This document shows, one piece after another, positions 2,212-52,090 of a stretch of 64,000 bases of DNA. Made by a program: the position numbers and the translations under genes. Origin of the DNA: Rhodothermales bacterium (lineage in GTDB: Bacteria > Bacteroidota > Rhodothermia > Rhodothermales > JANQRZ01); NCBI GenBank assembly GCA_965215145.1, contig OZ244038.1, forward strand, positions 956,579 to 1,020,578. Direction: 5' to 3'. The notes under the pieces were generated by a model, which was not told the DNA's origin, made no database searches, and saw only the letters and a program-made list of their open reading frames with translations. Within the stretch, counting starts at the first letter, position 1. Each line of letters begins with the position of its first letter.

Positions 2212-2482
2212 GGGCACCCCGCCGGCCGGCCGGCGTCGGTGCACGGGGGGCGGGGCGCCGGGGGCGAAGGGAGCCCCGGCTCTCGCCTCCTCAGCGGCCC
2301 CAGGAGCCCCGATACAGCCTCCTCCGGGTCACACACACAAAGGGCAGCGGGCGGCGGCGGCCACAGGGCCGCTGAGGGCGCCGAGGTCGGAAGGCGAGGA
2401 GAGGCGAGGATCGCGCCGGTCGTCCTGATCGTCGCCCCTACCTGAGGCTGACGTACTGCAGGGGCGCGCCTCCTCAGCCCCC

Positions 2483-8126: not shown

Positions 8127-8132
8127 CCGCCG

Positions 8133-9875
8133 ATGCCTGAACCCCTCAACGTCTTTGAGCACCAGCGCTTCCGGCTCCGCACACCGGAGGGGGAGCGCGT
8201 CGAGCGCTCGTTCCGCGAGCTCCTCACCGAAGGGGACGCGGCTTACGCCCTCGATTACGCGCAGCCGTTCTACGACGTCGCCGCGCTGAACCTCCTCGCC
8301 TTCCTGACCCAGCTCGCCTTCGAGCCGGAGACGCCCGCTGCGCTGGCCGAGCGGGTGGCCCGGCCGATGACGGAGGCCGAGTTCGAGGAGGGGGTGGCCC
8401 CGCTCCGCGCCCGCTGCTCCCTCACTGGCTCCGGCCCCCGGTTCATGCAGGGGCCGGAGCCGGAGGAGCCGAAGAAGGCCGAGTCCCTCGACGTGGCCGT
8501 CCCCATCGCCCCGAAGGGCGACCGCCAGTTCCTCCACCGCGCCGATGCCGACTGGGCCGTGCCGCCCGAGCAGGCCGGCCTCTTCCTCTTCGCCCGGAAC
8601 ACGTTCTACGAGGGCACCGGCGGGCGTGGCTACCAGAAGGGCACCAACGGCGACACCCCCGTCCGCGCCCTCGTCACGGTCCCGGCCGAGAACGAAACGA
8701 TCTGGCTCCGAAAGAGCCTCTGGCTCAACGTGCTCGCGCGCGAGCAGCAGCGGACCTATTCCGGCGACTACGCCGACCGTGATGCGCTCCGCCCCGGCGA
8801 CTACGACGGCCTCTTCTGGGCCGACCCGCCCGCGGACGACGTCCCCGTCGGCGGCATCACGCTCCGGGCCGGGCTCGGGTGGATGACGGCCTACCACTGG
8901 CTGTGGTTCGAAGAAGGGGAGGGGGTCTGCCCCCTCACGGGCGAGCGCGCCGCCGGCCTCGTCGCCCGCACAGCGACGAAGCGGAGCACGGGCGTCGCCT
9001 ACGGCACGAAGGGCGACCTCGAAGGGGGCACCCGTGCCGACCGCCTCTTCCGCCACCCGAACGTGCCCACGGAGAAGCTCCGGAAGAAGGGCGAGGTCGT
9101 CGGGGAGCGGCCATTCCTCGTGGACCGGACGAAGGGGCTTGTGGACGCCGTCGGCGCCGCCTTCTTCGGCGGGCTGACGGACGAGACGGCGGCGCCCTAC
9201 ACGCTCGCCCCCGTCGTGGCCCAGCTCAACGCCCCGGCCGTCGGCCGCCTCGGCCTCTCGACGCGGCTGCTCGTCTTCGGCTTCCACATGCTGACGAAGC
9301 ATAAGAGCGTCCACGGTGGCGTCGAGCAGGACACGTTCGCCTACGACCCCGTGGCCCCGGACGCGGCCGAGGCGCTGCGGGTGATGGACGCCGCAGCCAA
9401 GCTGATGAAGGAGGCCACCGCCTTCGCCTCCGACGCTGCCCGCGCACTCGGACAGGCCGTGCAGCGGACGGCCGGTGCCGGCGTCCGGGCGCAGGAGGAC
9501 CCCGAGACGGGCCGGATCACGCTGAAGAAGCTGGAGTCGGTCCCGTCCGTGGACGACCCCTTCGGGCGCGACACGCTCGCTGCGTTCTGGCGTGCCGTCC
9601 AGCGCGCGCACCTCCCCGCCCACGCCGCCGCCATCACGGAGACCGCCCGGCGCGGCCCCGACGCGCTCTCGGAGAGGCGCCAGGCGCTCCAGCGGGAGTG
9701 GGAGGACGCCGTCGCTCGCGAGGTGTGGCGGCAGTACGGCCCCGTCTTCGAGCACTACAGCACGCTCCCCCGCACCATGCCCTACGCCCACGCCGCTCAG
9801 CGCCTCCTCGGGGGCGCCCTGAAGAAGCTCCGCTCCACCGCGCCCGAGACGGCGCCCCAACCCGCCGACGCATGA
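8133..9875 (+). CDS. cas8e: Cascade large subunit Cas8e (Cse1/CasA)
   Basis: A 580-aa ORF in the canonical position between cas3 and cse2. Its size and context fit Cse1. Direct motif recognition is weak. Confidence 0.75.
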   Translation: MPEPLNVFEHQRFRLRTPEGERVERSFRELLTEGDAAYALDYAQPFYDVAALNLLAFLTQLAFEPETPAALAERVARPMTEAEFEEGVAPLRARCSLTGSGPRFMQGPEPEEPKKAESLDVAVPIAPKGDRQFLHRADADWAVPPEQAGLFLFARNTFYEGTGGRGYQKGTNGDTPVRALVTVPAENETIWLRKSLWLNVLAREQQRTYSGDYADRDALRPGDYDGLFWADPPADDVPVGGITLRAGLGWMTAYHWLWFEEGEGVCPLTGERAAGLVARTATKRSTGVAYGTKGDLEGGTRADRLFRHPNVPTEKLRKKGEVVGERPFLVDRTKGLVDAVGAAFFGGLTDETAAPYTLAPVVAQLNAPAVGRLGLSTRLLVFGFHMLTKHKSVHGGVEQDTFAYDPVAPDAAEALRVMDAAAKLMKEATAFASDAARALGQAVQRTAGAGVRAQEDPETGRITLKKLESVPSVDDPFGRDTLAAFWRAVQRAHLPAHAAAITETARRGPDALSERRQALQREWEDAVAREVWRQYGPVFEHYSTLPRTMPYAHAAQRLLGGALKKLRSTAPETAPQPADA

Positions 9876-13280: not shown

Positions 13281-15208
13281 CTCCTCCCCGCGCAGGCGGG
13301 GATGACCCGCACTAGACCAACCCGAAACCGCTTGCTCCATACTCCTCCCCGCGCAGGCGGGGATGACCCCCTCTCGCACCTCTCTACTGAGATGGGCCTG
13401 AGCTCCTCCCCGCGCAGGCGGGGATGACCCTGCGGACTGGAACCGCTCGACGAAAGTTTCCGCCTCCTCCCCGCGCAGGCGGGGATGACCCCCCCATGCC
13501 CCGCATCCCCGAGCCCCCCCGCGCCTCCTCCCCGCGCAGGCGGGGATGACCCCCGGGTCGCTCATTCGTCCGTCACGAGGCATTGCTCCTCCCCGCGCAG
13601 GCGGGGATGACCCGCCCAGCGTCGGCCTGCAACCGCTGGTTCTACGCTCCTCCCCGCGCAGGCGGGGATGACCCCATCAGGCCGAGGGCGCGGCGCTGGT
13701 CGGCGTCCTCCTCCCCGCGCAGGCGGGGATGACCCCGAATACAACCGCCTCCGCGCCGACGCGGAGGACTCCTCCCCGCGCAGGCGGGGATGACCCCTAC
13801 AGCCGCGGCGACCTCACGCAGCCGCTCGTCTCCTCCCCGCGCAGGCGGGGATGACCCGCCTGAACCCCCACCCCCACTCCTATGGCCGACCTCCTCCCCG
13901 CGCAGGCGGGGATGACCCCGGTCCCGCATACGCGAAAAACCGCTACGACGCCTCCTCCCCGCGCAGGCGGGGATGACCCCGAACGAGATCGGCCCGGTGC
14001 CGTTGAGGTCGTCTCCTCCCCGCGCAGGCGGGGATGACCCCTCGCCGTCCGACAGCCACGCCGGGATGCTGTCCTCCTCCCCGCGCAGGCAGGGATGACC
14101 CCGTATACCGCTGCCCCAGGCGGTGGGGCCGACGCTCCTCCCCGCGCAGGCGGGGATGACCCCGGATCGAACATGGCCGCAATGTCCTCGCCGCGGCTCC
14201 TCCCCGCGCAGGCGGGGATGACCCCGCGGCGCAGAATGGCCGATTTCGGCCCCCTCGCTCCTCCCCGCGCAGGCGGGGATGACCCTGCTCCACCCTCAGT
14301 TATCGGTCAGCCTACGAGCTCCTCCCCGCGCAGGCGGGGATGACCCTCGCTGTCGCGGGCCGTCTGAACTACGCACTCCCTCCTCCCCGCGCAGGCGGGG
14401 ATGACCCCGGGGCCCAGACGCCGTTCGTGTGGCCCATTGACTCCTCCCCGCGCAGGCGGGGATGACCCCGGCCACTTCGACGCCGCGGCTGCGCTGCTGC
14501 CCTCCTCCCCGCGCAGGCGGGGATGACCCCCACGTCGGCCAGTCCCCACCGCCGTTGGCGAGCTCCTCCCCGCGCAGGCGGGGATGACCCGCCAAACTCA
14601 CGATCGAGTTGGCGGAACAGGTCCTCCTCCCCGCGCAGGCGGGGATGACCCCCCCTGCTAGGTTCCAAGCGTCCATAGCACCGGCTCCTCCCCGCGCAGG
14701 CGGGGATGACCCCGCCGCCCTCGACACCCTCCTCAGGTTGCTCCCCTCCTCCCCGCGCAGGCGGGGATGACCCGCGGCCGTCTCGAAGACGATCCGCCAG
14801 GGCATCCTCCTCCCCGCGCAGGCGGGGATGACCCCCTCTGATTGAGCGGAACTGCCACCCTTGGTCTCTCCTCCCCGCGCAGGCGGGGATGACCCGCGGT
14901 ATTCCCTCCGCCGCGACGGCCCCAGCTTCTCCTCCTCGCGCAGGCGGGGATGACCCTCACAAGGCGGGGTTCCCGAGCCTCGTTTTCATCTCCTCCCCGC
15001 GCAGGCGGGGATGACCCCTCGTCGGCGCGCTGCATCTCGCCGCCGGTGCCCTCCTCCCCGCGCAGGCGGGGATGACCCGTAAACCCACTACCCCCCTACC
15101 CCCCTACCCCCCTACGTTGCTCCTCCCCGCGCAGGCGGGGATGAACCTGAGCATCGTTTCCTAACGCTCCCGTTGGATGGCTCCTCTCCGTCTATGAGTG
15201 GAGGAGCC
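13281..15208 (+). CRISPR. Type I-E CRISPR array with 31 well-conserved repeats, one decayed terminal repeat and 31 spacers
   Basis: The 28-nt core CTCCTCCCCGCGCAGGCGGGGATGACCC (plus a variable 29th base) recurs with 61-bp phase from 13281 to 15120. Exceptions are spacings of 62 bp at 14135->14197 and 69 bp at 15051->15120. Variant repeats are at 14074 (G>A), 14929 (C>T) and 15120 (..GATGAACC). A 19/28-matching remnant lies at 15181..15208, exactly in phase. The ...GGGGATGACCC orientation parallels the E. coli I-E repeat. Confidence 0.97.
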
Positions 15209-25453: not shown

Positions 25454-25915
25454 GGCCGTGTGAGACAATCCATGCTTGATCCAGTCCACCGCCGCCGCCA
25501 CGTGGAGCGCGCCGAGGTAGCTCTCGGCCGTCTTCTCGTAGCGCGTCGCCACCGCCCGCCACTCCTTGAGTCGGCCCCACAGTTGCTCTACCCGGTGCCG
25601 CTCGCGGTAGGCCCCCCGGTCGTAGGCCGCTCGGTCGTAGGCCGCTCGGTCGTAGGCCACGGCCGGGTGCGTCCGGTTGGCCGCGACGACGGGCTCGGCT
25701 CCGGCGATCCGGATCCCCGCCCGCCACGAGGCCGACGAGTACCCCCGGTCGCAGACGACCCGGCCCACGCGGCCGAGCCCGACCACGGCGACCAGGAGCG
25801 CGTCGGCCACGCGGAGCTCCGAGCGGTGCCCCGGCAGCAGCCGGAACGCGAGCGCCCGGCCCCGGCGGTCACAGGCGACGACGGCCTTCGTGCCGAAGCC
25901 GCCCCGGCTGCGCCC
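25454..25915 (-). CDS. IS transposase OrfB (DDE domain part), with no stop codon inside the IS
   Basis: GRSRGGFGTKAVVACDRRGRALAFRLLPGHRSE...VVCDRGYSS...YRERHRVEQLWGRLKEWRAVATRYEKTAESYLGALHVAAAVDWI is the typical IS5/IS427 C-terminal half. The frame runs through the IS end into the flanking ORF. Confidence 0.75.
25607..25664. repeat. 15-bp tandem repeat (GTAGGCCGCTCGGTC, about 3.9 copies) inside transposase OrfB
   Basis: Units start at 25607, 25622 and 25637, with a partial unit at 25652. They encode AYDRA-AYDRA-AYDRG in frame. Confidence 0.9.
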
Positions 25916-26143
25916 GAGCGCTACGTCTCGGAGCGCTACGTCTCGGAGCGCTACGTCTCGGAGCGCTACGTCTCGGAGCGCTACGTCTCGGAGCGCTACG
26001 TCTCGGAGCGCTACGTCTCGGAGCGCTACGTCTCGGAGCGCTACGTCTCGGAGCGCTACGTCTCGGAGCGCTACGTCTCGGAGCGCTACGTCTCGGAGCG
26101 CTACGTCTCGGAGCGCTACGTCTCGGAGCGCTACGTCTCGGAG
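25916..26143. repeat. 15-bp tandem repeat GAGCGCTACGTCTCG x15, plus a 3-nt partial unit
   Basis: There are fifteen perfect contiguous units in 25916..26140. Read on the minus strand they give (RDVAL)15 in the OrfB frame and contain the OrfA TAG stop in the OrfA frame. Confidence 0.97.
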
Positions 26144-30464: not shown

Positions 30465-33400
30465 CTACGCCACCGCCTCTGGCTCCTCCTCATCCTCCCC
30501 CACCTCGTCCTCCTCCGCCTCGCCCTCCTCGCCCGTGAGCGCGTCGAGGTCCACGGACGAGGGGCACGCGCCGACCGTCTCCTCGGCGCTGCCGCGCTCC
30601 AGCTCCTCCCGGACGAACGGCGCCGTCGCGGTGTCGGCCGCGGCCAGCTCCTCCGGCGTCCCGGTGAACACGATCTCGCCGCCCGCGTCGCCGCCGCCGG
30701 GGCCGAGGTCCACGACGTAGTCGGCCACCTTGACCACGTCGGTGTTGTGCTCGATCACGAGGACCGTGTTCCCCTTCTCGACGAGGGCCTGGAGCACGTG
30801 CAGCAGGTGGCGGATGTCCTCGAAGTGGAGGCCCGTCGTGGGCTCGTCGAGGATGTAGAGCGTGGAGCCGGTGCCGGGCCGCGAGAGCTCCTTCGAGAGC
30901 TTGACCCGCTGCGCCTCGCCGCCGGAGAGGGTCGTGGCCTGCTGCCCAAGGCGGATGTAGCCGAGCCCGACGGCGTCGAGCGTGCGGAGCTTCCGCGCGA
31001 TCCGCGGGACGGCCTCGAAGAACGCCAGTGCCTCCGAGACCGGCATCTCCAGCACCTCGGCGATGGTCCGCCCCTTGTAGCGGACCTCCAGCGTCTCGGC
31101 GTTGTAGCGCCGCCCCTTGCACGTCTCGCAGGCGACGTACACGTCCGGGAGGAAGTTCATCTCCAGCTTCACGATGCCCGCGCCCTTGCACGCCTCGCAC
31201 CGCCCGCCCTTCGTGTTGAAAGAAAAACGGCCGGGCTTGTAGCCGCGGATCTGGGCCTCGGGCGTCCGCGCGAACAGCTCGCGGATGAGCGTGAACAGGC
31301 CGGTGTACGTCGCGGGGTTCGAGCGGGGCGTCCGCCCGATGGGGCTCTGGTCGATGGCGATCACCTTGTCGACGTGCTCCAGCCCCTCGACGTCGCGGTG
31401 GGGGAGCGGGACGCTCTGCGCGTTGTGGAAGTGCGCGGCCAGCAGCGGGTGGAGCGTCTGGTTGATGAGGCTCGACTTCCCGGAGCCCGAGACGCCGGTG
31501 ACGGCCGTGAGCGTCCCGAGCGGGAGCTCGAGGGTCACGTCGCGGAGGTTGTGCCCCCGCGCGCCGATCAGCCGGAGCGTGTGCCCGTTGCCCGCCCTCC
31601 GCTCGGCGGGGACCGGGATGCGGCGCTCGCCGGTGAGGTAGGCCACCGTGAGGCTGTCCGTAGGGGCGTGATTAATCACGCCCCTACCCGCCACGATCTC
31701 CTCCGGCGTGCCCGCGCCTAACACGTGGCCGCCGTACTCCCCCGCGCCCGGGCCGAGGTCCACCACGTAGTCCGCCGCCTCGATCATCTCCCGGTCGTGC
31801 TCGACGACGAGGACCGAGTTGCCGAGGTCGCGGAGCGCGTCGAGGCTGTCGATGAGCTTGCCGTTGTCGCGGGGGTGGAGGCCGATGCTCGGCTCGTCGA
31901 GGACGTACAGGACGCCGGTGAGCTGGGTCCCGATCTGGGTGGCGAGGCGGATCCGCTGGCTCTCGCCGCCGGAGAGCGTCCGCGCCGAGCGGTCGAGGGT
32001 GAGGTAGTCGAGGCCGACGTTGAGGAGGAAGTCGAGGCGCTCGGTGATCTCCTTCACGATGGGCTCGCCGATCACGGCCTGCCGGCCTTCGAGCTCGAGA
32101 TCCGCGAACCACCGGCGGAGCGTGCGGAGGTCCATCCCGACGAGGTCGGCGATGCGCTGGTCGCCGTCGTAGGTGCCGGTGTTGCCGACGCGGTAGCTCA
32201 GGCTCTCCGGCTTGAGGCGCCCGCCGCCGCACGTCCGGCACGCGCGGACCCGCATGAACGCCTCGGCCCACTTCCGCTGGACCGACGAGTTGGTGTTCTC
32301 GTAGGTGTGCCAGACGTGCTGGTAGACGCCGCCGAACCGGTGCTGGTACTTCACCTCCCGCCCCTTGTACTTGTAGACGATGTCGAACTGCTCGTCGCCG
32401 GCGCCGTCGAGGAGCACCTCCCGCTGCCGCTCCGTCAGCTTCTCGACCGGCGTGTCGAAGTCGAACCCGTATCGGTCGGCGACGGCGCGGAGCTGGGAGA
32501 AGACCCACACGTCGCGCGGCCTCCCGAGCGGGACGACGCCGCCCTGGGCGATGGTCTTCGACGGCTCGGGCACGACGAGGTCCGGGTCGATCTCCTTTTT
32601 GACGCCGAGGCCGTTGCAGGCCGGGCACGCGCCGTAGGGGCTGTTGAACGAGAACGTGTTCGGGGAGGGGTCGTCGTAGCTCAGCCCGCCGGCGGGGTCG
32701 GTGAGGTGGCGGCTCATGAGGTGGTCCCCCACCAGATCATCACCGTCGGGAGCCGACAGCACCTGCGCGATCAGCGTGCCCCCGCCCATCCCGAGGGCCA
32801 GCTCGGCGGCGCGGGCGATCCGGGGGCGGACGCCCTCCTTCACCACGAGCCGGTCCACCACCACCTCGATGTCGTGGACGCGGTAGCGGTCGACCTTCAT
32901 CCCCTTCGTGATCTCGCGGAGCTCGCCGTCGACGCGGACGCGCTCGAAGCCCTGCTTGGCGAGCTGCTCGAAGAGGTCGCGGTAGTGGCCCTTCCGGCCG
33001 CGCACCACCGGCGCGAGCACGATCACCCGCGTCCCCTCGGGGAAGGCGAGGACGGTGTCGATGATCTCGTCGTCACTCTGCCGCCGCATCGGCCGGCCGG
33101 ACTTGTACGAGTAGGCGTCGGCGGCGCGGGCGTAGAGGAGCCGGAGGAAGTCGTAGATCTCCGTCACCGTCCCGACCGTGCTCCGGGGGTTCCGGGAGAC
33201 CGTCTTCTGCTCGATGGCGATGACGGGGGAGAGCCCGTCGATGAAGTCCACGTCCGGCCGCTCCATCACCCCGAGGAACTGGCGGGCGTAGGCGGAGAGC
33301 GACTCCATGTAGCGCCGCTGCCCCTCGGCGTAGATGGTGTCGAAGGCGAGGCTCGACTTGCCGCTGCCGGAGAGCCCGGTGATGACGACGAGGCGGTTGC

Positions 33401-33470
33401 GGGGGATGTCGAGGTCGACGTCCTGGAGGTTGTGCTCGCGGGCGCCGCGGATGAGGATCCGGTCGTCCAT
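30465..33470 (-). CDS. uvrA: Excinuclease ABC subunit A
   Basis: MDDRILIRGAREHNLQDVDLDIPRNRLVVITGLSGSGKSSLAFDTIYAEGQRRYMESLSAYARQFLG is followed by the second ATPase module (VTGVSGSGKSSLINQTL...LYILDEPTTGLH). An acidic C-terminal tail is present. Confidence 0.97.
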   Translation of the reverse strand: MDDRILIRGAREHNLQDVDLDIPRNRLVVITGLSGSGKSSLAFDTIYAEGQRRYMESLSAYARQFLGVMERPDVDFIDGLSPVIAIEQKTVSRNPRSTVGTVTEIYDFLRLLYARAADAYSYKSGRPMRRQSDDEIIDTVLAFPEGTRVIVLAPVVRGRKGHYRDLFEQLAKQGFERVRVDGELREITKGMKVDRYRVHDIEVVVDRLVVKEGVRPRIARAAELALGMGGGTLIAQVLSAPDGDDLVGDHLMSRHLTDPAGGLSYDDPSPNTFSFNSPYGACPACNGLGVKKEIDPDLVVPEPSKTIAQGGVVPLGRPRDVWVFSQLRAVADRYGFDFDTPVEKLTERQREVLLDGAGDEQFDIVYKYKGREVKYQHRFGGVYQHVWHTYENTNSSVQRKWAEAFMRVRACRTCGGGRLKPESLSYRVGNTGTYDGDQRIADLVGMDLRTLRRWFADLELEGRQAVIGEPIVKEITERLDFLLNVGLDYLTLDRSARTLSGGESQRIRLATQIGTQLTGVLYVLDEPSIGLHPRDNGKLIDSLDALRDLGNSVLVVEHDREMIEAADYVVDLGPGAGEYGGHVLGAGTPEEIVAGRGVINHAPTDSLTVAYLTGERRIPVPAERRAGNGHTLRLIGARGHNLRDVTLELPLGTLTAVTGVSGSGKSSLINQTLHPLLAAHFHNAQSVPLPHRDVEGLEHVDKVIAIDQSPIGRTPRSNPATYTGLFTLIRELFARTPEAQIRGYKPGRFSFNTKGGRCEACKGAGIVKLEMNFLPDVYVACETCKGRRYNAETLEVRYKGRTIAEVLEMPVSEALAFFEAVPRIARKLRTLDAVGLGYIRLGQQATTLSGGEAQRVKLSKELSRPGTGSTLYILDEPTTGLHFEDIRHLLHVLQALVEKGNTVLVIEHNTDVVKVADYVVDLGPGGGDAGGEIVFTGTPEELAAADTATAPFVREELERGSAEETVGACPSSVDLDALTGEEGEAEEDEVGEDEEEPEAVA
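31660..31687. repeat. 28-bp perfect palindrome GTAGGGGCGTGATTAATCACGCCCCTAC inside the uvrA coding sequence
   Basis: Seen directly. It is translated as G-R-G-V-I-N-H-A-P-T in the uvrA frame. The AT-rich centre is conspicuous in a gene of about 70% GC. Confidence 0.95.
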
Positions 33471-40262: not shown

Positions 40263-40351
40263 CCGGCGGAGCCGCTCGCGCGTGGCTCCGCCGTCGGCGC
40301 GCTTGTTCGCCGCGCCCGGCCGTCTGTTTCAGCCCCCACCGCCGCGGTGCC

Positions 40352-40870
40352 ATGATTGCGCAGAGTTCATCCCGCCTCCGCCGCGCCCTCAACGTTGCCG
40401 GCGTGTCCCTCCTCGCCGCGTGCTCGCAGCCGGAGCCCGCCGCACCCCCGCCGGACCGGACGCCCGAGCCGGGCACCACCGAGCCCGTCCCTTACGACGT
40501 GGTGGCCGGGGGGGCGATGTCGCCGCTCGGCGTCGTCGAGCGGGTGTTCGGGGAGGAGGCCGAATGGGCGCCCATCGCGGCTCAGCTCGGCGTGCGGCGG
40601 CGGGGCGATGTCACGGGGACGGCCCCCGTCCTCTTCGCCGCCGTCGAGGCGCCGACGGGCGGTCACCGCCTCCGCTTCGACCGGGTCTACGCCCGCACCA
40701 ACCGCGACGGGCAGGCGGAATTGGTCGCGGCCTACACCGTCGAGGAGCCGGGGCCGGGCTGCGGGGCGCGCCCGGTCCTGACCCGACCGTTCCAGGCCAT
40801 CCACATCCAGCGGCACGGCGACCTCCCGGTGCAGTTCGTCGGGCGGCGTCAGGCGGTGCCGTGCGAGTGA
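40352..40870 (+). CDS. Hypothetical lipoprotein
   Basis: The signal peptide with lipobox reads VSLLAAC-SQPEP. The product is 172 aa. Confidence 0.55.
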   Translation: MIAQSSSRLRRALNVAGVSLLAACSQPEPAAPPPDRTPEPGTTEPVPYDVVAGGAMSPLGVVERVFGEEAEWAPIAAQLGVRRRGDVTGTAPVLFAAVEAPTGGHRLRFDRVYARTNRDGQAELVAAYTVEEPGPGCGARPVLTRPFQAIHIQRHGDLPVQFVGRRQAVPCE

Positions 40871-40889
40871 CGGAGCAGACCCGCACGTG

Positions 40890-40954
40890 GTAGGGGCGGA
40901 CCCGCGTGTCCGCCCTGAACCGCCGAGGGGCCGGGCACGTGCGTCCGTCCCTAC
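40890..40954. repeat. REP-like inverted doublet (GTAGGGGCGGAC ... GTCCGTCCCTAC)
   Basis: The outer arms are at 40890..40901 and 40943..40954, with an inner partner GTCCGCCCT at 40907..40915. The 3' arm contains the TAG stop of the ABC ATPase gene (minus strand). Confidence 0.7.
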
Positions 40955-41694
40955 GCCACCTCCAGCGCCTCGACGCCCGCCTCTGCCAACACCGGCTGCT
41001 CGACGGGCGCGTCGTGCTCGATCTGGCCGTCGCGGAGGCGGACGATGCGGCGGGCGTGTGCGGCGATGTCCTCCTCGTGCGTGACCACGATGAGCGTGTT
41101 GCCGCGGCGGTAGAGGAGCTCGAAGAGCCGCATGATCTCGTCGCTCGTCGCCGTGTCGAGGTTGCCGGTGGGCTCGTCGGCGAGGAGGATCGAGGGGTCG
41201 TTGACGAGGGCGCGCGCCACGGCGACGCGCTGGCGCTGCCCGCCGGAGAGCTCGTTCGGCTTGTGCGTCATCCGGTCCCCGAGGCCGACCTGCGTGAGGG
41301 TCTCGGCCGCGCGGTCCCGGCGGTCCCGGCGGGGGACGCCGGCGTAGATCAGCGGGAGCTCGACGTTCTGGAGGCACGTCACGCGCGGGAGCAGGTTGAA
41401 CGTCTGGAAGACGAACCCGATCTCGCGGTTGCGGACCTCGGCGAGCTCGTCGTCCGAGAGCGTCGAGACATCGCGGCCGTTGAGGACGTAACGCCCGGCC
41501 GTCGGGGTGTCGAGGCAGCCGACGATGTTCATCAGCGTGCTCTTCCCCGAGCCCGACGGCCCCATCACGGCGACGTACTCGTTGGGGCGGATGTCCACCG
41601 AGAGCCCGCGGAGGGCCTGCACCTCCTCGACGCCCATCTGGTAGACCTTCCACGCCTCCTGGATGTGGATAATGGGCTGGGCAGAGGGTTGCAT
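40951..41694 (-). CDS. ABC transporter ATP-binding protein (MacB/LolD-type ATPase, no fused permease)
   Basis: Walker A is GPSGSGKST. The signature is [15 protein letters not shown]. Walker B is [12 protein letters not shown]. The H-loop is VVTHE. Confidence 0.9.
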
Positions 41695-41708
41695 AGCGAT
41701 AAGGCTTG

Positions 41709-41781
41709 GTAGGGGCGGGCCTTGTGCCCGCCCCCGTCGAGACAGCAGTCGGGAGCGGGCGACCACGAGGGTCGCCCCTAC
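41709..41781. repeat. REP-like inverted doublet (GTAGGGGCG ... CGCCCCTAC)
   Basis: GTAGGGGCG lies at 41709..41717 with a local hairpin GGGGCGGGC-cttgt-GCCCGCCCC. CGCCCCTAC lies at 41773..41781. The element sits between the adaptor and ATPase genes. Confidence 0.7.
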
Positions 41782-41798
41782 GGGGTTGCGACGGCGCG

Positions 41799-43223
41799 TC
41801 AGGACCGGGAAGGGCCGCGGCGGGCGGGCTCGGCCACCACGGCGTCGCCGTCGTCGAGCTCGGTGCGGAGCAGGCGGAACGGGCCGGCCACGACGGTCTC
41901 CCCGCCGGTCAGCCCGCGGACGACCTCGATGTGGGTGTCGTCCGCGATCCCGGTCTCGACCTCGACCATCTCGGCCACCCCCTCGCGCACGACGAACACG
42001 ACCCGCCGGAGGTCTTCCTCGGCGAAGGCGTCCACGGCGTCCGCCTCGTCGCCGTCCTCTTCTGCGTCGTCATCGTCCCGAGCCTGCCGGCGGCGGACCT
42101 CGTTGAAGTCGCGTACGGTGACGGCCTGGATGGGGACGACGACGGCGCGCGGGACGGTCTCGGTGAACACGTCCACGGTGCCGCTCATGCCGGGCCGGAG
42201 GACCGGCACGTCCGTCGCCGCGGACTCCGTGGCCTCGGCCGCCGTGAGGTCCCCGTCGGTGGAAGCCCGCCGGACGACGCCGAGGTTCTGGTTGTGCGCG
42301 CTCGTGATCTTGATCTTGACGGGGAAGCTCGTCGTCTGCTCGACGGTGCCGGCGCCCGCCACCCGCGCCGAGTTCGCGATCTGGGTGACGATCCCCCGGA
42401 AGGGCTGGTCCGGGAACGCGTCGATCTCGACCTCGGCCGAGTCCCCCACGGCGACGCGGACGACGTCGTTCTCGTTGACGTCGACCTCGAGCTCCATCTG
42501 GTCCAGCTCGGCGATCCGCATGATCTCGGTGCCGGCCATCTGCGCGGTGCCGAGCACGCGCTCGCCGGGCTCGACGTTGAGCACGGAGACGGTCCCGCTC
42601 ATCGGCGCGTAGATCGCCGTCCGGCGGAGCTGGTCGGCGGATTGGCTCAGGACGGCCTCGGCGCTGCGGACGCGGAAGCGCGCGGCCTCGTGGGCCGCGG
42701 CGGTCACCTCGGCGCGCGTCTCGGCCGCCTCCAACTCGGCGCGGGGGATCACGCCGCGCTCGAAGAGGCCCCGCTGCCGTTCGAGGTCGGCGCGGGCCTG
42801 GGTCAGCTCGGCCTCGGCGCGCGAGGCGTCGGCGCGCGCGCTGAGCACGCTGGCCTCGGACTGCTGGCGCCCGGCGGCGTACTGCTCCCCGCGGATCCGC
42901 ACGAGGAGCTGCCCGGCCTCGACGCGGTCCCCCTCCTCGACGGCGATGAAGACGACCTCCCCCGAGACCTCGCTCGCGAGCGGGACCTCGACCTCGGGGC
43001 GGACCTCGCCGGAGCCGGTCACCGTCTCGGTGATCGTGCGGACGGTCGCCTCGGCCGTCTCGACCTCGGTGGCGTCCTCGCCCCCGCGCCCGCCGAGCAC
43101 GAGGGCGACGACGAGGAGCAACGCGATCACGCCGAAGACGACGGCGAGCACGCGGCCGGTGCGCTTCGGCCGGGCGTTCGGAGCAGGGGCAGCAGGGGGG
43201 GTGCTCATGCAGAGGGAGGGCAT
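41799..43223 (-). CDS. Efflux transporter periplasmic adaptor subunit (HlyD/MacA family)
   Basis: An N-terminal TM anchor is followed by a lipoyl-like hairpin ([25 protein letters not shown]), a coiled coil ([33 protein letters not shown]) and beta-barrel segments. The start may instead be at 43208. Confidence 0.85.
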
Positions 43224-43224
43224 C

Positions 43225-43252
43225 GTAGGGGCGCAGCGCGCTGCGCCCCTAC
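43225..43252. repeat. 28-bp perfect palindrome GTAGGGGCGCAGCGCGCTGCGCCCCTAC (REP-like)
   Basis: Seen directly between the TolC-like stop (43268) and the adaptor start. Confidence 0.95.
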
Positions 43253-43267
43253 AACCTTAGAGGACAT

Positions 43268-44740
43268 TTATTCGAACGGTACCGTGTCCGCGTCGAGCGT
43301 GCCGACGGCGTAGTCGAGCAGCGTCCGCTGGAAGACGAATTGGGCCACGGCCTGCGCCCTGGCGCTCCGGGCTTCGACGAGGCGGGCCTGCGCCTGCGCC
43401 CGCTCCGTCAGCGTCGAGACGCCGAGGGCGTAGCGCTCCTGCTCGGCCGCGAGGGCGACCTCGGCGGCCTCGACCTGCCGGGCCGTCACGTCGAGGCGCT
43501 TCTCGGCGTTGCGGTAGTCGAGGTACGCCTGCCGGACCTCGAGGGCGACGTCCTGCTCCAGGTCCTCGAGCGCGATCCGCGCGTTCTCCCGCGCGAGCCG
43601 CGCCTGCCGCACCTGCGCCCGCGTGGCGAACCGGTCGAAGATCGGGATGTCGATCGAGAGGCCGACCGAGCCGCCGCGGTTGTCGGTGAAGAACTGGCTC
43701 CCGAAGGGGGCCTCCTCGAACTCCGGCGAGCCGGGGATCACGAACGGCTCGCCGCCGATGAAGACGGGGTCACCGGAGGCCGTGGTCACGGGGGTCACCG
43801 TACCGGTGCCGTCGATGGGGCGGGAGGCGAGGCTGGAGTAGCTGGAGCCGTACGAGGCGAAGAGGTCCACGCGCGGGTAGTACCCGCCCTTGGCCGCCTG
43901 CACCGAGGCGTCGGCCGCCGCGATGGCGCGCTCCTGCGCCGCGAGGTCCACTCGGCGGTCGTAGGCGGCGGTGAGGAGCGCTTCGAGGTCGTAGGCCGCC
44001 GGCGTCAGCGCGACGGCCTCGAGGTCCGGGGCCGTGAAGGCGTACGCCTCGAAGGGGTCGAGCTGGAGGGTGCCGACGAGCCGCGTCCGCGCCAGCTCGA
44101 GCTGGCTCTCCGCCTGGAGCAACGCGAGCTCGGCCTCGGCGACCAGCGCCGCCTGCTGGAACAGGTCGGCCCGCGCCCGCACCCCGCCCTCAACCAACTG
44201 CTCGACCTGGGCGAGCTGCTGCTCCTGCGCGCCGAGGGCCTCGCGGCGGATCGTCACGAGCTCGGCGTCGAGGAGCGTCTGCAGGAACTCGTTGCCGACG
44301 GTGAAGAGCACGTTCTGCTCGGCCCGCTCCAGGTCCAGCCGGCCGACCTCCCGTTCGAGCCGCCGCTGCCGCAGCGTCGCCACGTCGCTGAACCCGTTGA
44401 AGACGTTGATGCCGAGGGACGCCGAGGCGCTGAGGGCCTCGCTCGTCTCCTGCTCCAGCCGCCCCGTCGTCTGGTCGAAGGCGAGCCCGTAGCGCTGGGC
44501 CGGGGTGAGGGACGCCGAGAGGTTCGGGAGGAACGAGGCGCGGGCGAAGTCGACGGCCTCGCCGCGGGCCTGCACGGCGTTCTCGGCGCGGCGGAGGTCG
44601 GTGTTCTGGCGGAGCGCGATCTGCAGCGCCTCCTCGAAGGTGATCTCGCGGGCTGGCCCGTCCTGCAGAACGTCCTGGGCCGCCGCGGTGGGCTGGATCA
44701 GCAGAAGGGCGAGGAGTAGACCGTAGCCGAAACGGGGCAT
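43268..44740 (-). CDS. TolC-family outer membrane efflux protein
   Basis: Signal peptide MPRFGYGLLLALLLIQPTAAAQ. The two TolC repeats show the characteristic L-x-x-A-x-x-x-A-L-x-x-N-x-D-L and coiled-coil Ala/Leu/Glu/Arg-rich pattern. Confidence 0.85.
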   Translation of the reverse strand: MPRFGYGLLLALLLIQPTAAAQDVLQDGPAREITFEEALQIALRQNTDLRRAENAVQARGEAVDFARASFLPNLSASLTPAQRYGLAFDQTTGRLEQETSEALSASASLGINVFNGFSDVATLRQRRLEREVGRLDLERAEQNVLFTVGNEFLQTLLDAELVTIRREALGAQEQQLAQVEQLVEGGVRARADLFQQAALVAEAELALLQAESQLELARTRLVGTLQLDPFEAYAFTAPDLEAVALTPAAYDLEALLTAAYDRRVDLAAQERAIAAADASVQAAKGGYYPRVDLFASYGSSYSSLASRPIDGTGTVTPVTTASGDPVFIGGEPFVIPGSPEFEEAPFGSQFFTDNRGGSVGLSIDIPIFDRFATRAQVRQARLARENARIALEDLEQDVALEVRQAYLDYRNAEKRLDVTARQVEAAEVALAAEQERYALGVSTLTERAQAQARLVEARSARAQAVAQFVFQRTLLDYAVGTLDADTVPFE

Positions 44741-44843
44741 GGTGGGGGTCACGTCGGGGAGAGCAGACGGGAGCTTTGACGGCCCGCCCTGACCCTTTGT
44801 TACAGGGGGCGGGGCCGAGCGCACCCCGAAAACCGAGGCGAAG

Positions 44844-46718
44844 TTAGGCCGCCTCCCGTTCCGCTACTTGGGCCGCCGTCAGTAATTCGGCGAACGCCTC
44901 GTCGCTCTCGACCTGCTCCATCATCAGGAGGATGAGGCGGGCGTTGAGGCGGGCGCTCTCCTCGCCCGAGAGCCCGTCGTGCGCCTTAACGAGCCGGTTG
45001 TAGCGCGCATCGTGGGGGTAGTCCGGCCGGCGGTCCTCGATGGCGACGGGCTCGACCGGCGGCGCGTGCCCCGTGGCCCGCCGGAGCGCCGCGCGGATCA
45101 CCTCCTCATCGAGCGTCCGGCCCCGCGCCGCGACGTGCTGATCGGGCCGGATGAGATACCACGAGCCAGGAAGGGCGTCGTAGCGCTTGGCGAACAGCTC
45201 CTCCGCGTCCACGAGCACGCCCGGCACCGACGGGTCGGGTGTGACGGGGACGACCTCGACCAGGATCTCCCCACCGGTGAGCCCGCCGAGGTCGGGCGCC
45301 TGGCCGCCCTCGGTGAAGACGACGAGGCCGAACCGGTCGCCGAGGTGGCGGAGGAGCCACGTCGGCTCGCCGTCGCGGGTGAGGGGGGCGTCGGCGGCGG
45401 GGTAGCCGGGCTGGAGCGCGCCGCCGAACGCGTCCGTGTCGGGCGTCGTCAGCGGCGAGCGGAGGTAGCGGTGCGGCTTCGAGAGCCGGCCGCTGTTGAC
45501 GAGCCGCCGCATCGCCGGGCGCCCCTCGGCGAGGGCGAGGGCGGCGTTGCGGAAGACGAGGCTCGCCGGGTTCTTCGGCGAGATGAAGTCGGTGGCCTGC
45601 GAGGAGTGGCGGATGTTCTCGTCGGCGGCCGGCCCGCGCTCGGCGTCGTAGGTGTCGAGGAGGGACGCCGGGGCTGCGCCGCGGAGCACGAGGGCCAGCT
45701 TCCACGCGAGGTTGTCGGCGTCCTGGATGCCGCCGTTGGCGCCCCGCGCGCCGAACGGCGAGATCTGGTGCGCGCTGTCGCCGACGAAGACCACGCGGCC
45801 GTGGACGAACCGGTCGAGGCGGAGGCAGCGGAACCGGTAGATGCTCGTCCACTCCAGCTCGAAGTCCACCTCCGGCCCGAGCATTTCGCGGATGCGCGCC
45901 CGGATCCGCGCGGGGTCGAGCTCGGCCTCGCGGTCGATGTCGGGGCCGAGCTGGAGGTCGATCCGCCAGACCCCGTCGGGCTGCTTGTGCAGGAGCGCCG
46001 ACCCGCCGGGGTTGAACGGGGGGGCGAACCAGAACCACCGCTCGGTCGGGAAGTCCGCCCCCGCGCCCATCGTCACGTCGGCGATGAGGAAGTGCTCGTC
46101 GAAGTCCTCCCCCCGCAGCGGGAGATCCAGGAGCCGACGGACGGCGCTGCCGACGCCGTCGCAGGCGAGGAGGTAGTCGGCCTCGACGGTGTAATCCCCC
46201 TCCGGCGTCCGGGCCGTCACCGCCACCCCGTCCCCGCGTGGCTCGACGCCCACGACCTCGTTTTCCCAGCGGAGATCCACCAGTGGCTCCGCCTCGGCCC
46301 GGTCCACGAGGTACTCCTCGCCGTAGTACTGCTGGAGGTTGATGAACGCCGGCCGCTCGTGCCCCGCCTCCGGGAGCAGGTTGAACTCGTAGACGAGGCC
46401 GTCGCGGAAGAACACCTTCCCGAGGTTCCACGTCACCCCCTTCGCGACCATCCGGTCCCCGGCCCCGAGCCGGTCGCAGATCTCCAGCGTCCGCTTGGCG
46501 AAGCAGATCGCCCGCGAGCCGATGGAGACCGTGTCGTCCTCGTCGAGCACGACCGACGGGACGCCCTGCCGCGCGAGCGCGAGCGCCGCGGCGAGGCCGA
46601 CCGGCCCGGCCCCCACGATCACAGCGGGGTGCCGCGTGGGCCGCTCCGCGTCCTGGTCCGGCGAGCGGCGGTACGGGTACGTCGGGTTCTCGTAGGTCGA
46701 GGGGGTGATGCGGGGCAT
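44844..46718 (-). CDS. FAD-dependent aromatic-ring monooxygenase (MhpA/PheA-like) with a C-terminal extension
   Basis: The dinucleotide-binding motif reads AVIVGAGPVGLAAALALARQGVPSVVLD, followed later by GRVVFVGDSAHQISPFGARGANGGIQDADNLAWKL. Confidence 0.85.
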   Translation of the reverse strand: MPRITPSTYENPTYPYRRSPDQDAERPTRHPAVIVGAGPVGLAAALALARQGVPSVVLDEDDTVSIGSRAICFAKRTLEICDRLGAGDRMVAKGVTWNLGKVFFRDGLVYEFNLLPEAGHERPAFINLQQYYGEEYLVDRAEAEPLVDLRWENEVVGVEPRGDGVAVTARTPEGDYTVEADYLLACDGVGSAVRRLLDLPLRGEDFDEHFLIADVTMGAGADFPTERWFWFAPPFNPGGSALLHKQPDGVWRIDLQLGPDIDREAELDPARIRARIREMLGPEVDFELEWTSIYRFRCLRLDRFVHGRVVFVGDSAHQISPFGARGANGGIQDADNLAWKLALVLRGAAPASLLDTYDAERGPAADENIRHSSQATDFISPKNPASLVFRNAALALAEGRPAMRRLVNSGRLSKPHRYLRSPLTTPDTDAFGGALQPGYPAADAPLTRDGEPTWLLRHLGDRFGLVVFTEGGQAPDLGGLTGGEILVEVVPVTPDPSVPGVLVDAEELFAKRYDALPGSWYLIRPDQHVAARGRTLDEEVIRAALRRATGHAPPVEPVAIEDRRPDYPHDARYNRLVKAHDGLSGEESARLNARLILLMMEQVESDEAFAELLTAAQVAEREAA

Positions 46719-46850: not shown

Positions 46851-47801
46851 CTATCCCTGAAGCGCCTCCCACATCTCGCGGTCGCGCTCGGCGGTCCAGA
46901 TCTGCGGGTGCTCGGTGCCCTGCGCCTCGTCGTAGGCGCGGGCGACGTTGAACGGCATGCAGTGCTCGAAGATGACCCAGTCACCGAAGCGCGGGCTCAT
47001 CGCCGCGTGGATCCGGTCGTAGCACGCCTTCAGATCCTCGCCTTTCGCTGCCGCCTTCTGCGCCTCCTCGAACAGCATCGTGACGTACTCGCGCGTGCCG
47101 GAGATCGCCTCCCGGCAGGTTTCGGGCGAGGTGAGGGCGTCGCCGCGGCCGGGGACGAGGGCCTCCGGCTCCAGCGCCTCGAGCCGGCGCAGCGTCTCGG
47201 GCCAGCGGGCGAGCTGGGCGTCGCCGCAGTACGGCGTCGCGCCGTACTCGACCTGGTCGCCGGCGAAGAGGACGCGCTCCTCCGGGAGCCACACCACGGC
47301 GTCCCCGCGCGTGTGCCCCTCGCCGACGTGGACGATGCGGACCTCGCGCTCGCCGAGCCACAGCGTCATCGCCGTGTCGAACGTCAGCGTGGGCCACGTC
47401 AGGCCGGGGATGCTCTCGTGCCCGCGGAAGAGACGGGGGAACCGCTCGAACTCGCTCTGCCAGTCCTGCTCCCCGCGCTCGACCACCATCTCGCGCGCCT
47501 TGGCCGACATGATGACCTCGCGGGCGCCGTAGGCGCTGGCGCCGAGGACGCGGACGGCGTGGTAGTGCGTGAGGACGAGGTGCTCGATGGGCTTGTCGGT
47601 CACCTCGCGGATGCGGGCGACGACGTCGCTCGCCATGCGCGGGGTCGCCTGGGCCTCGATGACCAGCACGCTCTCGTCGCCGACGACGACGCCGCTGTTG
47701 GGGTCGCCCTCGGTGGTGTAGGCGTAGGCGCCGGGGGCGATCTCCTCGAACGTGACCTGCTTCTCTTCGAGGTCGCCCTGGGAGGCGAAGGGGGTAGCCA
47801 T
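46851..47801 (-). CDS. MBL-fold metallo-hydrolase
   Basis: LVLTHYHAVRVLG (HxHxxR variant of the HxHxDH motif), ...IVHVGEGHTRGDAVVWLPEERVLFAGD... The start at MATPF is preferred over the ORF-track start at 47900. Confidence 0.8.
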   Translation of the reverse strand: MATPFASQGDLEEKQVTFEEIAPGAYAYTTEGDPNSGVVVGDESVLVIEAQATPRMASDVVARIREVTDKPIEHLVLTHYHAVRVLGASAYGAREVIMSAKAREMVVERGEQDWQSEFERFPRLFRGHESIPGLTWPTLTFDTAMTLWLGEREVRIVHVGEGHTRGDAVVWLPEERVLFAGDQVEYGATPYCGDAQLARWPETLRRLEALEPEALVPGRGDALTSPETCREAISGTREYVTMLFEEAQKAAAKGEDLKACYDRIHAAMSPRFGDWVIFEHCMPFNVARAYDEAQGTEHPQIWTAERDREMWEALQG

Positions 47802-47856
47802 GACGAGCGGGGTTGATGGGCGGGGGGGGAGGGATGGCCTCCGGCGAGGCTTCGCG

Positions 47857-47880
47857 TTCGAACCCCCGGTGCCTTGCGGC
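47857..47880. repeat. 24-bp duplicate of an internal tRNA-Ser segment
   Basis: TTCGAACCCCCGGTGCCTTGCGGC at 47857..47880 is identical to 47916..47939 inside tRNA-Ser. It lies 22 nt beyond the tRNA 3' end. Confidence 0.9.
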
Positions 47881-47901
47881 GCGGGGGCATCCAGCTCCAA
47901 G

Positions 47902-47986
47902 CGGAGGGGGAGGGATTCGAACCCCCGGTGCCTTGCGGCACAACGGTTTTCAAGACCGCCGCATTCGACCGCTCTGCCACCCCTCC
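47902..47986 (-). tRNA. tRNA-Ser (anticodon TGA)
   Basis: The reverse complement is GGAGGGG-TG-GCAGAGCGGTCGAATGC-..-CTTGAAA anticodon loop-long variable arm GTGCCGCAAGGCAC-GGGGG-TTCGAAT-CCCTC-CCCCTCC-G. It is 85 nt and CCA is not encoded. Confidence 0.85.
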
Positions 47987-48175
47987 GGGGAAGGGATTAA
48001 GGTACGCCGACCGCCGCGTCCTCAGCCCTGCCCAGATAGGCCGGGGGTCTATTTGCATGGGGGGCTTGCTTTAGGGGATATGTGAGGCGATATTGCTCCC
48101 TCGCCGCACGGTCCCTCCGCCCCGCCTGCTCCCATGTGCGGCCTAATGCAGGCTTTCCCGACTCTCCCCCTACCC

Positions 48176-51868: not shown

Positions 51869-52019
51869 GGAGCCACTTGGGGAGGGGGGCTAAGGAGGAC
51901 GACCTCCGCCAATCTACGCCCTCGTTGAACTTGCAGGCTCGGATCAGGCACCACCGTTCGCCGAGTCAAGGGGCCCAATCGGAGAATCCGGCGAGGTGCG
52001 CCAAAGGCGACGTAGGTTT

Positions 52020-52090
52020 GCGCCTCGACGGCCTGCGCCTCGACGGCCTGCGCCTCGACGGCCTGCGCCTCGACGGCCTGCGCCTCGACC
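52020..52090. repeat. 15-bp tandem repeat GCGCCTCGACGGCCT, about 4.7 copies
   Basis: Perfect units start at 52020, 52035, 52050 and 52065, with a partial unit from 52080. The array ends about 32 nt upstream of the ppk1 ATG. Confidence 0.95.

Follow-up and report, generated by a model that had tools for sequence, protein, structure and literature searches.

GTAG-tagged REP elements at the gene ends of an efflux operon and within uvrA in a Rubricoccaceae genome

In the 64-kb stretch of DNA analyzed here (hereafter, the window), palindromic sequences are located at the gene ends of an operon encoding a TolC-like outer-membrane factor, a periplasmic adaptor, and an ABC ATPase. The palindromes are true copies of GTAG-tagged REPs, the partners of RayT/TnpA-REP, and thus add one more case to a family that has already been described. 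Table 1 summarizes the corresponding features. An earlier note on this DNA had described three elements, the coordinates of which were all confirmed, and had assigned them to every junction of the operon. Two of these (A and C) occupy true intra-operon junctions, whereas the third (D) lies at a convergent 3' end, between the ATPase gene and an oppositely oriented PrcB_C-like gene. Moreover, a fourth element (B), a perfect palindrome in uvrA, had been overlooked.

Table 1. Coordinates of the REP elements and of the genes around them in the window.
Feature	Coordinates	Strand	Remark
TolC-like outer-membrane factor gene	43268..44824	-	Pfam OEP
Element A, double-foot REP GTAGGGGCG-CAGCGCGCTG-CGCCCCTAC	43225..43252	.	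perfect 28-bp palindrome
Periplasmic adaptor gene, HlyD family	41799..43208	-	
Element C, promoter-proximal unit on mRNA, canonical-long REP GTAG-GGGCGACC-ctcgt-GGTCGCCC	41757..41781	-	
Element C, second unit, canonical-long REP GTAG-GGGCGGGC-cttgt-GCCCGCCC	41709..41734	+	
ABC ATPase gene, last in operon	40951..41697	-	
Element D, decayed unit GTAGGGACGGACGCACGTGCCCGGCC	40929..40954	-	81% identical to left unit
Element D, intact unit GTAG-GGGCGGAC-ccgcgt-GTCCGCCC	40890..40915	+	good hairpin
PrcB_C-like gene, convergent, bounds element D	40352..40870	+	GC3 frame plot; sub-threshold Pfam match
uvrA, intact, 1001 aa, hosts element B	30465..33470	-	product identical to database protein P0001
Element B, double-foot REP, centre TGATTAATCA	31660..31687	.	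perfect 28-bp palindrome, z = -5.0
Lone GTAGGGGCG 9-mer	2433..2441	-	without hairpin

In the case of element A, which is the compact palindrome reported earlier between the tolC-like and adaptor genes, the repeat is positioned 15 nt past the tolC-like stop codon and 16 nt ahead of the adaptor ATG (43208), and its RNA fold was calculated to be -29.0 kcal/mol (z = -4.4). Element C (41709-41781) is a head-to-head, REPIN-like dimer with outward tags and a spacer of 22 nt, as its earlier description as an inverted doublet implied, and the fold of the whole dimer was -47.8 kcal/mol (z = -3.05). Its promoter-proximal unit begins 17 nt past the adaptor stop codon, and its second unit stops 11 nt short of the ATPase ATG at 41697. 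Element D has the same layout of inverted tags as element C, but one arm is decayed. The intact unit begins 19 nt past the TGA of the convergent PrcB_C-like gene, a neighbor also present in loci L123 and L126. The right unit (GTAGGGACG…) has kept its tag and lost its self-complementarity, forming no stable hairpin, and the fold of the whole region was not significant (z = +0.35). Because the right unit agrees with the left one at 13 of the 17 positions outside the 9-mer (P ~2e-4), it was regarded as a decayed arm and not as a chance match. As stated in the earlier note, the doublet overlaps the end of the ATPase gene, the stop codon of which is the TAG of this right unit (40951-40953).

The elements share a common design. 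A 5' GTAG followed by a stem of 8-10 bp was found in A, B, both units of C, and the left unit of D, and the hairpin units vary by paired changes that preserve the stem, such as GGC/GCC, ACC/GGT, and GAC/GTC. The palindromes A and B have their outer 9 nt in common, while their 10-nt centres are different and each self-complementary. Within a dimer, the arms are 77% (C) and 81% (D) identical, compared with 46-62% between dimers.

The frequency of the motif was determined for both strands of the window. The exact 9-mer GTAGGGGCG occurred 8 times against a mean of 1.11 expected from dinucleotide shuffles, a 7-fold enrichment; the shuffles gave 5 copies at most, and none of the 100 reached 8. When one mismatch was allowed, little enrichment was observed (47 versus 35.5 expected), and one of the 100 shuffles reached 47. 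A loose scan of the window for any hairpin with a GTAG or GTGG foot yielded 47 hits for GTAG versus 46 for CTAC and 39 for GATG, which corresponds to the GC-rich background, and a hairpin definition with a GGGCG stem was adopted in its place. Searching the whole window against Rfam at the gathering score returned two tRNAs only and no match at the REP elements. The GTAG elements form four loci (seven tags) in 64 kb, of which three fall in one 2.4-kb operon and one is the uvrA copy 9 kb away. As this clustering in one operon is tighter than uniform scattering, it could reflect selection. The earlier note had also listed a lone half-site near the start of the window. The exact 9-mer is present at this site, but it has no hairpin and its similarity outside the 9-mer is 2/17. 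Since approximately one copy is expected by chance and neither a hairpin nor wider similarity accompanies it, the site is compatible with chance and is probably a chance match or a relic.

Element B is inserted in frame in an intact uvrA gene, the product of which is 100% identical to a database protein and contains the UvrA Pfam domains. The peptide specified by the element, G-RGVINHAPT, falls in a loop whose length varies greatly. Removing the 28-mer from uvrA did not restore the sequence of the relatives; in a codon-by-codon alignment, the net difference was +18 nt. Because of this net difference and the variable length of the loop, no target duplication was called.

The family to which these elements belong was determined by comparison with published REP systems. 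The reading of the motif as a GTAG-tagged REP family recognized by RayT, together with the REPIN-like interpretation of the doublets, agrees with the text and Table S1 of Quentin, Siguier, Chandler & Fichant 2018 (PMC6006769) and with PMC3733652. In PMC6006769, the REPs of subclass 2.4, which corresponds to RAYT Group 4 of Bertels et al. 2017 (PMC5581495), are either canonical long, having a stem that begins with three G-C pairs, or double foot (GT[AG]G…C[TC]AC), and in-frame REP insertions are described within the tnpA gene itself. Elements A and B consist of GTAG, a stem, and CTAC, the double-foot form, whereas the units of C and D combine GTAG with a stem starting in GGG, the canonical-long form. 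Accordingly, A and B are most probably double-foot REPs, and C and D head-to-head dimers of canonical-long REPs, all being cognates of subclass 2.4/Group 4. The 9-mer GTAGGGGCG appears 68 times in Table S1 of PMC6006769, and among these entries is one 28-mer of the GTAGGGGCG-N10-CGCCCCTAC type given verbatim (GTAGGGGCGAAAAATTTTTCGCCCCTAC). Further likenesses to the subclass 2.4 REPs are the 5' GTAG and a stem base of three G-C pairs, the tolerance of in-frame copies in proteins, probably the low to moderate copy number, and the scattering over many phyla, including Bacteroidetes-type lineages. In contrast, the copies described here are located at operon junctions and in uvrA and not around tnpA. 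Literature matches to the exact 9-mer string or to the REP-encoded peptides were confined to unrelated papers.

The placement of the elements also fits the GTAG superfamily, which includes the SMAG elements of S. maltophilia (Di Nocera, De Gregorio & Rocco 2013, PMC3733652). Its members are short stem-loops (20-40 bp) with GTAG at one end, where the tag adjoins a stem of 6-13 bp, as it does here. According to PMC3733652, they provide TAG stop codons, lie mainly between co-directional or convergent ORFs, and are also present as in-frame copies in repair genes, uvrA and uvrB among them. In the window, A and C are found between co-directional genes, 15-17 nt past the stop codons, and D between convergent genes; the supply of a TAG stop, the in-frame uvrA copy, the position near 3' ends, and the head-to-head dimers (20-100 bp apart in their elements) are shared as well. 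Unlike the present case, the GTAG repeats of that survey came from Proteobacteria, Cyanobacteria, Chloroflexi, and the PVC group and not from Bacteroidetes-type phyla. The double-foot form as such was not described in PMC3733652, and the text-form supplementary files of that paper contained no GTAGGGGC-type sequence. Rubricoccaceae (Rhodothermales) were not found in a full-text term search of PMC3733652 or in the main text of PMC6006769, and with the present elements the known range of the subclass 2.4 (Group 4) REP/RayT system now includes a genome of this family.

Two other groups of repeats are comparable in part. The REPINs and BIMEs of Pseudomonas and E. coli (Bertels & Rainey 2011, PMC3116915; E. 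coli RayT) likewise consist of an inverted REP pair with a short spacer forming one long hairpin, have arms that are closer within one dimer than across dimers, and are presumed to be non-autonomous and moved by a single-copy Y1 transposase. They differ in that their transposases belong to subclasses 2.2 and 2.5 (Groups 2 and 3) and that they are lineage-specific with hundreds of copies, whereas here identical 28-mers occur across phyla and many are single double-foot units. The Rickettsia palindromic elements, as far as PMC3733652 treats them, resemble element B in being short palindromic repeats in intact ORFs that lengthen a surface loop by a peptide; they differ in having no known dedicated transposase, another sequence, and another host range.

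A RayT gene was also searched for. None was detected in the 64-kb window using phmmer and the family HMM. In a related locus of a Salinibacteraceae MAG (L015), a 28-mer of the same design was found 25 nt upstream of a RayT ORF. PMC6006769 gives as traits of subclass 2.4 RayTs the motifs NH[IFV]H, WQ, and YIxNNP, flanking REPs, and an in-frame REP copy. The L015 ORF contains the HUH motif as MPNHIHG, WQ as VWQR, and Y..NP as RRYVDRNP, and a second 28-mer lies in frame within it and encodes RRGVLQYAPT. This set of subclass 2.4 REPtron traits (motifs, REP flank, in-frame copy) was found in the related locus L015 only. Against Pfam Y1_Tnp, the ORF scored 18.8 bits, which is below the cut-off of 23 bits, and it had 3710 homologues, several of which carry the JGI name RayT. 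Among the best 120 of the 3710 homologues, 90 contained a REP-encoded peptide between the HUH and WQ motifs, in two reading frames. In the REP/RayT literature covered, no biochemical demonstration that a subclass 2.4 enzyme transposes REPs of this type was described, and nuclease activity is cited there for the E. coli subclass 2.2 enzyme only.

A scan of public genomes revealed the same 28-mer design at more than 119 loci in approximately 20 phyla, in some cases without a single base difference, and the GC content of the genomes lay between 32% and 72%; 81 of 124 matches were exactly 28 bp long. L121 and the close relative L124 also contained related REP copies. The family could have lacked further copies, a case considered in the earlier note, but copies exist in uvrA, in L124, and at the loci in other genomes. 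A RayT was located within 8 kb of 2 of 119 motif loci (family HMM), and in an all-against-all ORF clustering around these loci no neighbor family occurred in more than 9 of them. Therefore, the 28-mer copies were considered to be dispersed and not the ends of insertion sequences. The range of phyla and GC contents is far wider than that of the lineage-specific REPs of enterobacteria and pseudomonads, and is consistent with the horizontal transfer of a transposase gene bearing a copy of its own substrate inside the ORF.

The operon was further compared among relatives. In L124, the adaptor of which is 92% identical, the tolC|adaptor junction carries a different double-foot REP, while the adaptor|ATPase junction carries the orthologous C dimer and an extra 29-mer, with an eroded foot in the orthologue of the promoter-proximal C unit. 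Among the more distant relatives, the same operon in L125 has no hairpin repeats at either junction, and in L126 the junctions hold an unrelated palindrome family, CTGGCGG…CCGCCAG, with 6 copies in 5.8 kb, some of them off the operon. Judged from these sequences, the junction differences point to mobile elements that turn over, and they offer a modest example of how REPs at orthologous sites turn over between close relatives. Moreover, as the junction elements vary even at 92% identity, conserved, sequence-specific regulation is argued against.

Nevertheless, the junction hairpins might be selected post-transcriptional regulators that owe only their origin to REPs and, as RNA, determine the relative levels of TolC, adaptor, and ATPase through a block to 3' exonucleases or occlusion of the following start codon. 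This reading would account for the hairpins at the 3' ends of all three operon genes, for their spacing (15-17 nt past the tolC-like and adaptor stops, over the ATPase stop, and 11-16 nt before the next ATG), for the very stable folds of -29 and -48 kcal/mol, and for the concentration of three of the four window loci in the operon; the same junctions also carry other REP variants in L124 and unrelated palindromes in L126. However, the L125 operon is without repeats at both junctions, the L126 palindromes reflect density rather than operon-specific occupancy, the tolC|adaptor sequence is swapped and not conserved between the 92%-identical relatives, and placement after ORFs is a genome-wide habit of REPs (PMC3733652). 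Thus, selected regulation of this type is considered unlikely. It is likewise rather improbable that junction occupancy itself was selected, with separate palindrome families recruited independently to the orthologous operons (here, in the 92%-identical relative, and in L126) and tuning pump stoichiometry as RNA hairpins.

As perfect 28-bp dyad symmetries close to gene starts, the palindromes could be taken for operators of a dimeric transcription factor controlling the efflux operon. This is highly improbable, since the same design lies within the uvrA coding sequence and in unrelated contexts in approximately 20 phyla, the central 10 nt vary among copies, no element precedes the first operon gene, and no regulator gene is adjacent. 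Equally remote is the view of the elements as intrinsic terminators of the usual GC-rich kind or as hairpins arising by chance in a 72% GC genome. The loose hairpin scan, in which the GTAG/GTGG foot was about as frequent as the control tetranucleotides, would be in its favor, but the enrichment of the exact 9-mer, the common ends of the perfect palindromes, and the identical designs in genomes of widely differing GC content contradict it. A terminator scan of 40300-45000 gave 0 sites, and on the mRNA strand none of A, C, and D is followed by a T/U tract.

For REPs of the RayT family, the preferred reading, the knowledge of related systems suggests the following origin. RayT would bind, cut, and rejoin the GTAG hairpin in single-stranded DNA, and copies would thereby spread. 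They would persist where harm is low, just past genes and in the gaps separating co-directional or convergent genes, and in occasional cases as in-frame copies within a tolerant protein loop, here that of uvrA. Junction copies that are transcribed would form very stable RNA hairpins, which could shield the upstream mRNA from 3' exonucleases or impede initiation at the next gene. A role of the junction elements in mRNA stability would be plausible and consistent with their placement, and such effects may possibly be a side effect of the hairpins and not the cause of their presence. For the efflux operon itself, only a hypothesis of mRNA-level modulation follows. In terms of annotation, such REP copies account for many spurious small ORFs as well as for odd peptides in otherwise conserved proteins, RGVINHAPT of UvrA being one instance.

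The 9-mer shared by the units of the repetitive extragenic palindromes (REPs), GTAGGGGCG, occurred as an exact match 8 times in the window against 1.11 expected, and none of 100 shuffles reached 8. When one mismatch was permitted, the excess was nearly gone; thus, the signal resides in the exact copies. The palindromic elements that the earlier note had placed in the efflux operon were found (elements A, C, and D), and a fourth, element B, which it had missed, was located inside uvrA. The lone half-site at 2433 that it had added to them showed neither a hairpin nor further similarity, and chance alone predicts one copy of this kind. The coordinates are summarized in the table.

Coordinates of the REP elements, genes, and related palindromes (window positions unless a contig is named)
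Feature	Position	Strand	Structure or gene call	RNA fold
Element A	43225-43252		perfect 28-bp palindrome	-29.0 kcal/mol, z = -4.4
Element B	31660-31687		perfect 28-bp palindrome	-28.5 kcal/mol, z = -5.0
Element C	41709-41781		two inverted units	-47.8 kcal/mol, z = -3.05
Element D	40890-40954		one sound unit and one no longer folding	-41.2 kcal/mol, z = +0.35
FAD monooxygenase	44844-46718	-	GC3 + Pfam	
TolC-like OEP gene	43268-44824	-	GC3 + Pfam	
HlyD-type adaptor	41799-43208	-	GC3 + Pfam; start codon set by comparison with relatives	
ABC ATPase	40951-41697	-	GC3 + Pfam	
PrcB_C-like ORF	40352-40870	+	convergent with ATPase	
uvrA, host of element B	30465-33470	-	intact, 1001 aa	
CTGGCGG-N5-7-CCGCCAG copies, contig L126	201, 1835, 2602, 2787, 4084, 5246		several at orthologous efflux-operon junctions	

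The hairpin units had GTAG and GGGCG in common and beyond these differed by paired changes that preserved the stem (GGC/GCC, ACC/GGT, GAC/GTC, CAGCG/CGCTG, and TGATT/AATCA). The outer 9 nt of element B were identical to those of element A, with a different, self-complementary centre, and both units of element C consisted of GTAG and an 8-bp stem beginning GGGCG. The decayed and the sound unit of element D were still 81% identical and agreed at 13 of 17 positions outside the 9-mer (P about 2e-4); element D is therefore a true dimer in which one arm has eroded, and the stop codon of the ATPase is the TAG in the foot of this arm. Three of the four loci lie within one operon, a clustering above the uniform-scatter prediction that may reflect local hopping, tolerance, or selection. 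No Rfam family matched the REP elements. At 15084-15115, CCCCCTAC was repeated four times in tandem (GTAGGGGG on the opposite strand); despite the GTAGGGG shared with the REP foot, these copies form no hairpin and are thus probably unrelated to it.

The GC content of the window was 72%. Its UvrA was 100% identical to a database protein, the nearest named relatives being Rubricoccaceae and Rubrivirga (order Rhodothermales), and a type IX secretion sorting domain in a neighbouring protein was consistent with a Rhodothermales lineage. Frame analysis of third-codon-position GC (GC3) together with Pfam gave four minus-strand genes. A minus-strand tRNA (47902-47986) overlapped the 5' part of a long ORF with a metallo-beta-lactamase fold (46851-47996), and the true start of that gene must therefore be further downstream.

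The hairpin units are exactly of the published GTAG-tagged, subclass 2.4 types. The GTAG-tagged superfamily was defined by Di Nocera et al. (2013, PMC3733652): head-to-head dimers are the commonest dimer type in most families, copies occur mainly near 3' ends between co-directional or convergent ORFs, and the tags supply TAG stop codons. TnpA-REP subclass 2.4 was tied to two REP types, the "canonical long" type, whose stem base has three G-C pairs, and the "double foot" type with 5' GT[AG]G and 3' C[TC]AC (Quentin et al. 2018, PMC6006769); Table S1 of that study contains GTAGGGGCG 68 times and gives the double-foot 28-mer GTAGGGGCGAAAAATTTTTCGCCCCTAC for Caldilinea. The same clade is RAYT Group 4 of Bertels et al. 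(2017, PMC5581495), which covers 17 bacterial classes and whose associated 16-mer has only about 14 copies per replicon. Accordingly, the earlier reading of RAYT-type GTAG REPs with REPIN-like inverted dimers was essentially right, in agreement with PMC3733652 and PMC6006769, and the window elements are a new example, in Rubricoccaceae, of an already described REP type. Three further points stand out: one copy is in frame in uvrA, the REPs turn over at orthologous junctions, and the 28-mer is spread very widely across phyla.

In the case of element B, only one of the three reading frames of the 28-mer is stop-free, and this frame is used in uvrA, where it encodes G-RGVINHAPT between …GTPEEI… and …DSLTVAYLTG…. 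The length of this stretch was highly variable among 120 homologues, the closest of which had only K/R-G-S-A-E/D. The net difference from relatives was +18 nt; thus, a clean insertion event is not reconstructible. In-frame copies in uvrA, uvrB, and further repair genes are a tendency already published for GTAG REPs (PMC3733652), and element B agrees with it. Long, odd insertions were also observed in this loop in other Rubricoccaceae/Rhodothermales UvrA proteins (P0046, P0052, P0055, P0057, P0058, P0089, and P0106). For example, P0057 carries repeated …SHVTRHTS…, and P0052, P0055, and P0058 carry …VPTDNG…; the loop may be a hotspot at which further repeats have inserted in frame.

The junction hairpins begin 15-17 nt past the stop codons of the tolC-like and adaptor genes and end 11-16 nt short of the next ATG. 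They lack a U tract, and a terminator scan returned 0 sites in 40300-45000; hence, they are not intrinsic terminators. When transcribed, they may stabilise the upstream mRNA or hinder initiation. Relatives differed at these junctions. In L124, a metagenomic contig with the gene order of the window and a 92% identical adaptor, the tolC-adaptor junction carried a double-foot element of another sequence (GTAGGGGCGGGTTT and AAACCCGCCCTTAC separated by 21 nt). Its adaptor-ATPase junction had dimer C in orthologous form, one of the feet being eroded, together with an additional 29-mer, GCAGGGGCGGGTTTCAAACCCGCCCCTAC, absent from the window. In L125 (59% identical), neither junction had a REP, and about six tandem copies of CCCCGACT occupied the adaptor-ATPase spacer instead (5490-5540, equal to 370-415 of contig L122). 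The Rubricoccaceae-like contig L126 (68% identical) carried another palindrome at its junctions, CTGGCGG-N5-7-CCGCCAG, with 6 copies in 5.8 kb, some away from the operon, and frequently flanked by cta…/…tag. Other relatives had one REP or none in about 20 kb. With repeats gained, lost, and replaced at sites that tolerate them, this pattern is better explained by mobile elements than by conserved regulatory sequence.

Scanning one genome from each species with the pattern GTAGGGGCG-N4-34-CGCCCCTAC gave at least 119 loci in about 20 phyla, including Chloroflexota, Cyanobacteriota, Bacillota, Bacteroidota/Rhodothermota, Desulfobacterota, Planctomycetota, and Acidobacteriota, a 28-mer spread far broader than that reported for RAYT Group 4. 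Among the matches listed, 81 of 124 were exactly 28 bp, the GC of the host loci ranged from 32% to 71%, and no neighbouring gene family was common to the 119 loci. Identical 28-mers recurred in unrelated phyla among these matches, for example with centres CACGGCCGTG, TATTGCAATA, and GTTCGCGAAC; centre TATTGCAATA was found in Salinibacteraceae, Planctomycetales, Atribacterota, and a cyanobacterium. Doublets of 46-52 bp were also present in Clostridia. Copies at L026 (6254-6282), L071 (6014-6036), and L073/L087 were flanked by short inverted repeats, e.g., gaaaacag…ctgttttc, and look as if the REP sits within the loop of an older hairpin; similar cases are described for some GTAG families (Di Nocera et al., PMC3733652).

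In a related lineage, the family shows a physical link to a RayT gene. Locus L015, from a Salinibacteraceae MAG, has 28-mers at 2668-2695 and 3133-3160, one of them 25 nt upstream of an ORF bearing MPNHIHG, WQR, and Y..NP motifs and the second in frame inside it, encoding RRGVLQYAPT. The ORF scored 18.8 bits against Pfam Y1_Tnp, below the 23-bit cut-off; its protein had 3710 homologues, and JGI annotates several of them as "REP element-mobilizing transposase RayT". Among the best 120 of these 3710, 90 had a peptide encoded by a REP in the same position, with the HUH motif on one side and WQ on the other, read as RGVLQYAPT 42 times and as VGA....PL 8 times. Since two reading frames are used, the conserved feature is the DNA hairpin and not the peptide. 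With the family HMM, just 2 of the 119 loci among the matches listed had a RayT, and the 64-kb window had none. We infer that a transposase gene with a copy of its substrate inside it would introduce REPs into a new host when transferred horizontally. By analogy with its family, RayT would bind a single-stranded hairpin with 5' GTAG and would cut and join DNA, spreading REP copies, which would persist past the ends of genes and within protein loops that tolerate them.

Other repeats were also present in the window. An array at 13585-14835, in which the 29-nt repeat CTCCTCCCCGCGCAGGCGGGGATGACCCC recurs about 20 times at intervals of about 61 nt, looks like a CRISPR array, and the large ORFs upstream of it (5148-9875) might be cas genes. 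Perfect 15-bp tandem repeats were located at 25916-26143, 52019-52089, and 25607-25658, including GAGCGCTACGTCTCG (15.2 copies) and TGCGCCTCGACGGCC (4.7 copies), both at 100% identity; the 15-bp, five-codon unit suggests recent expansion within coding sequence.
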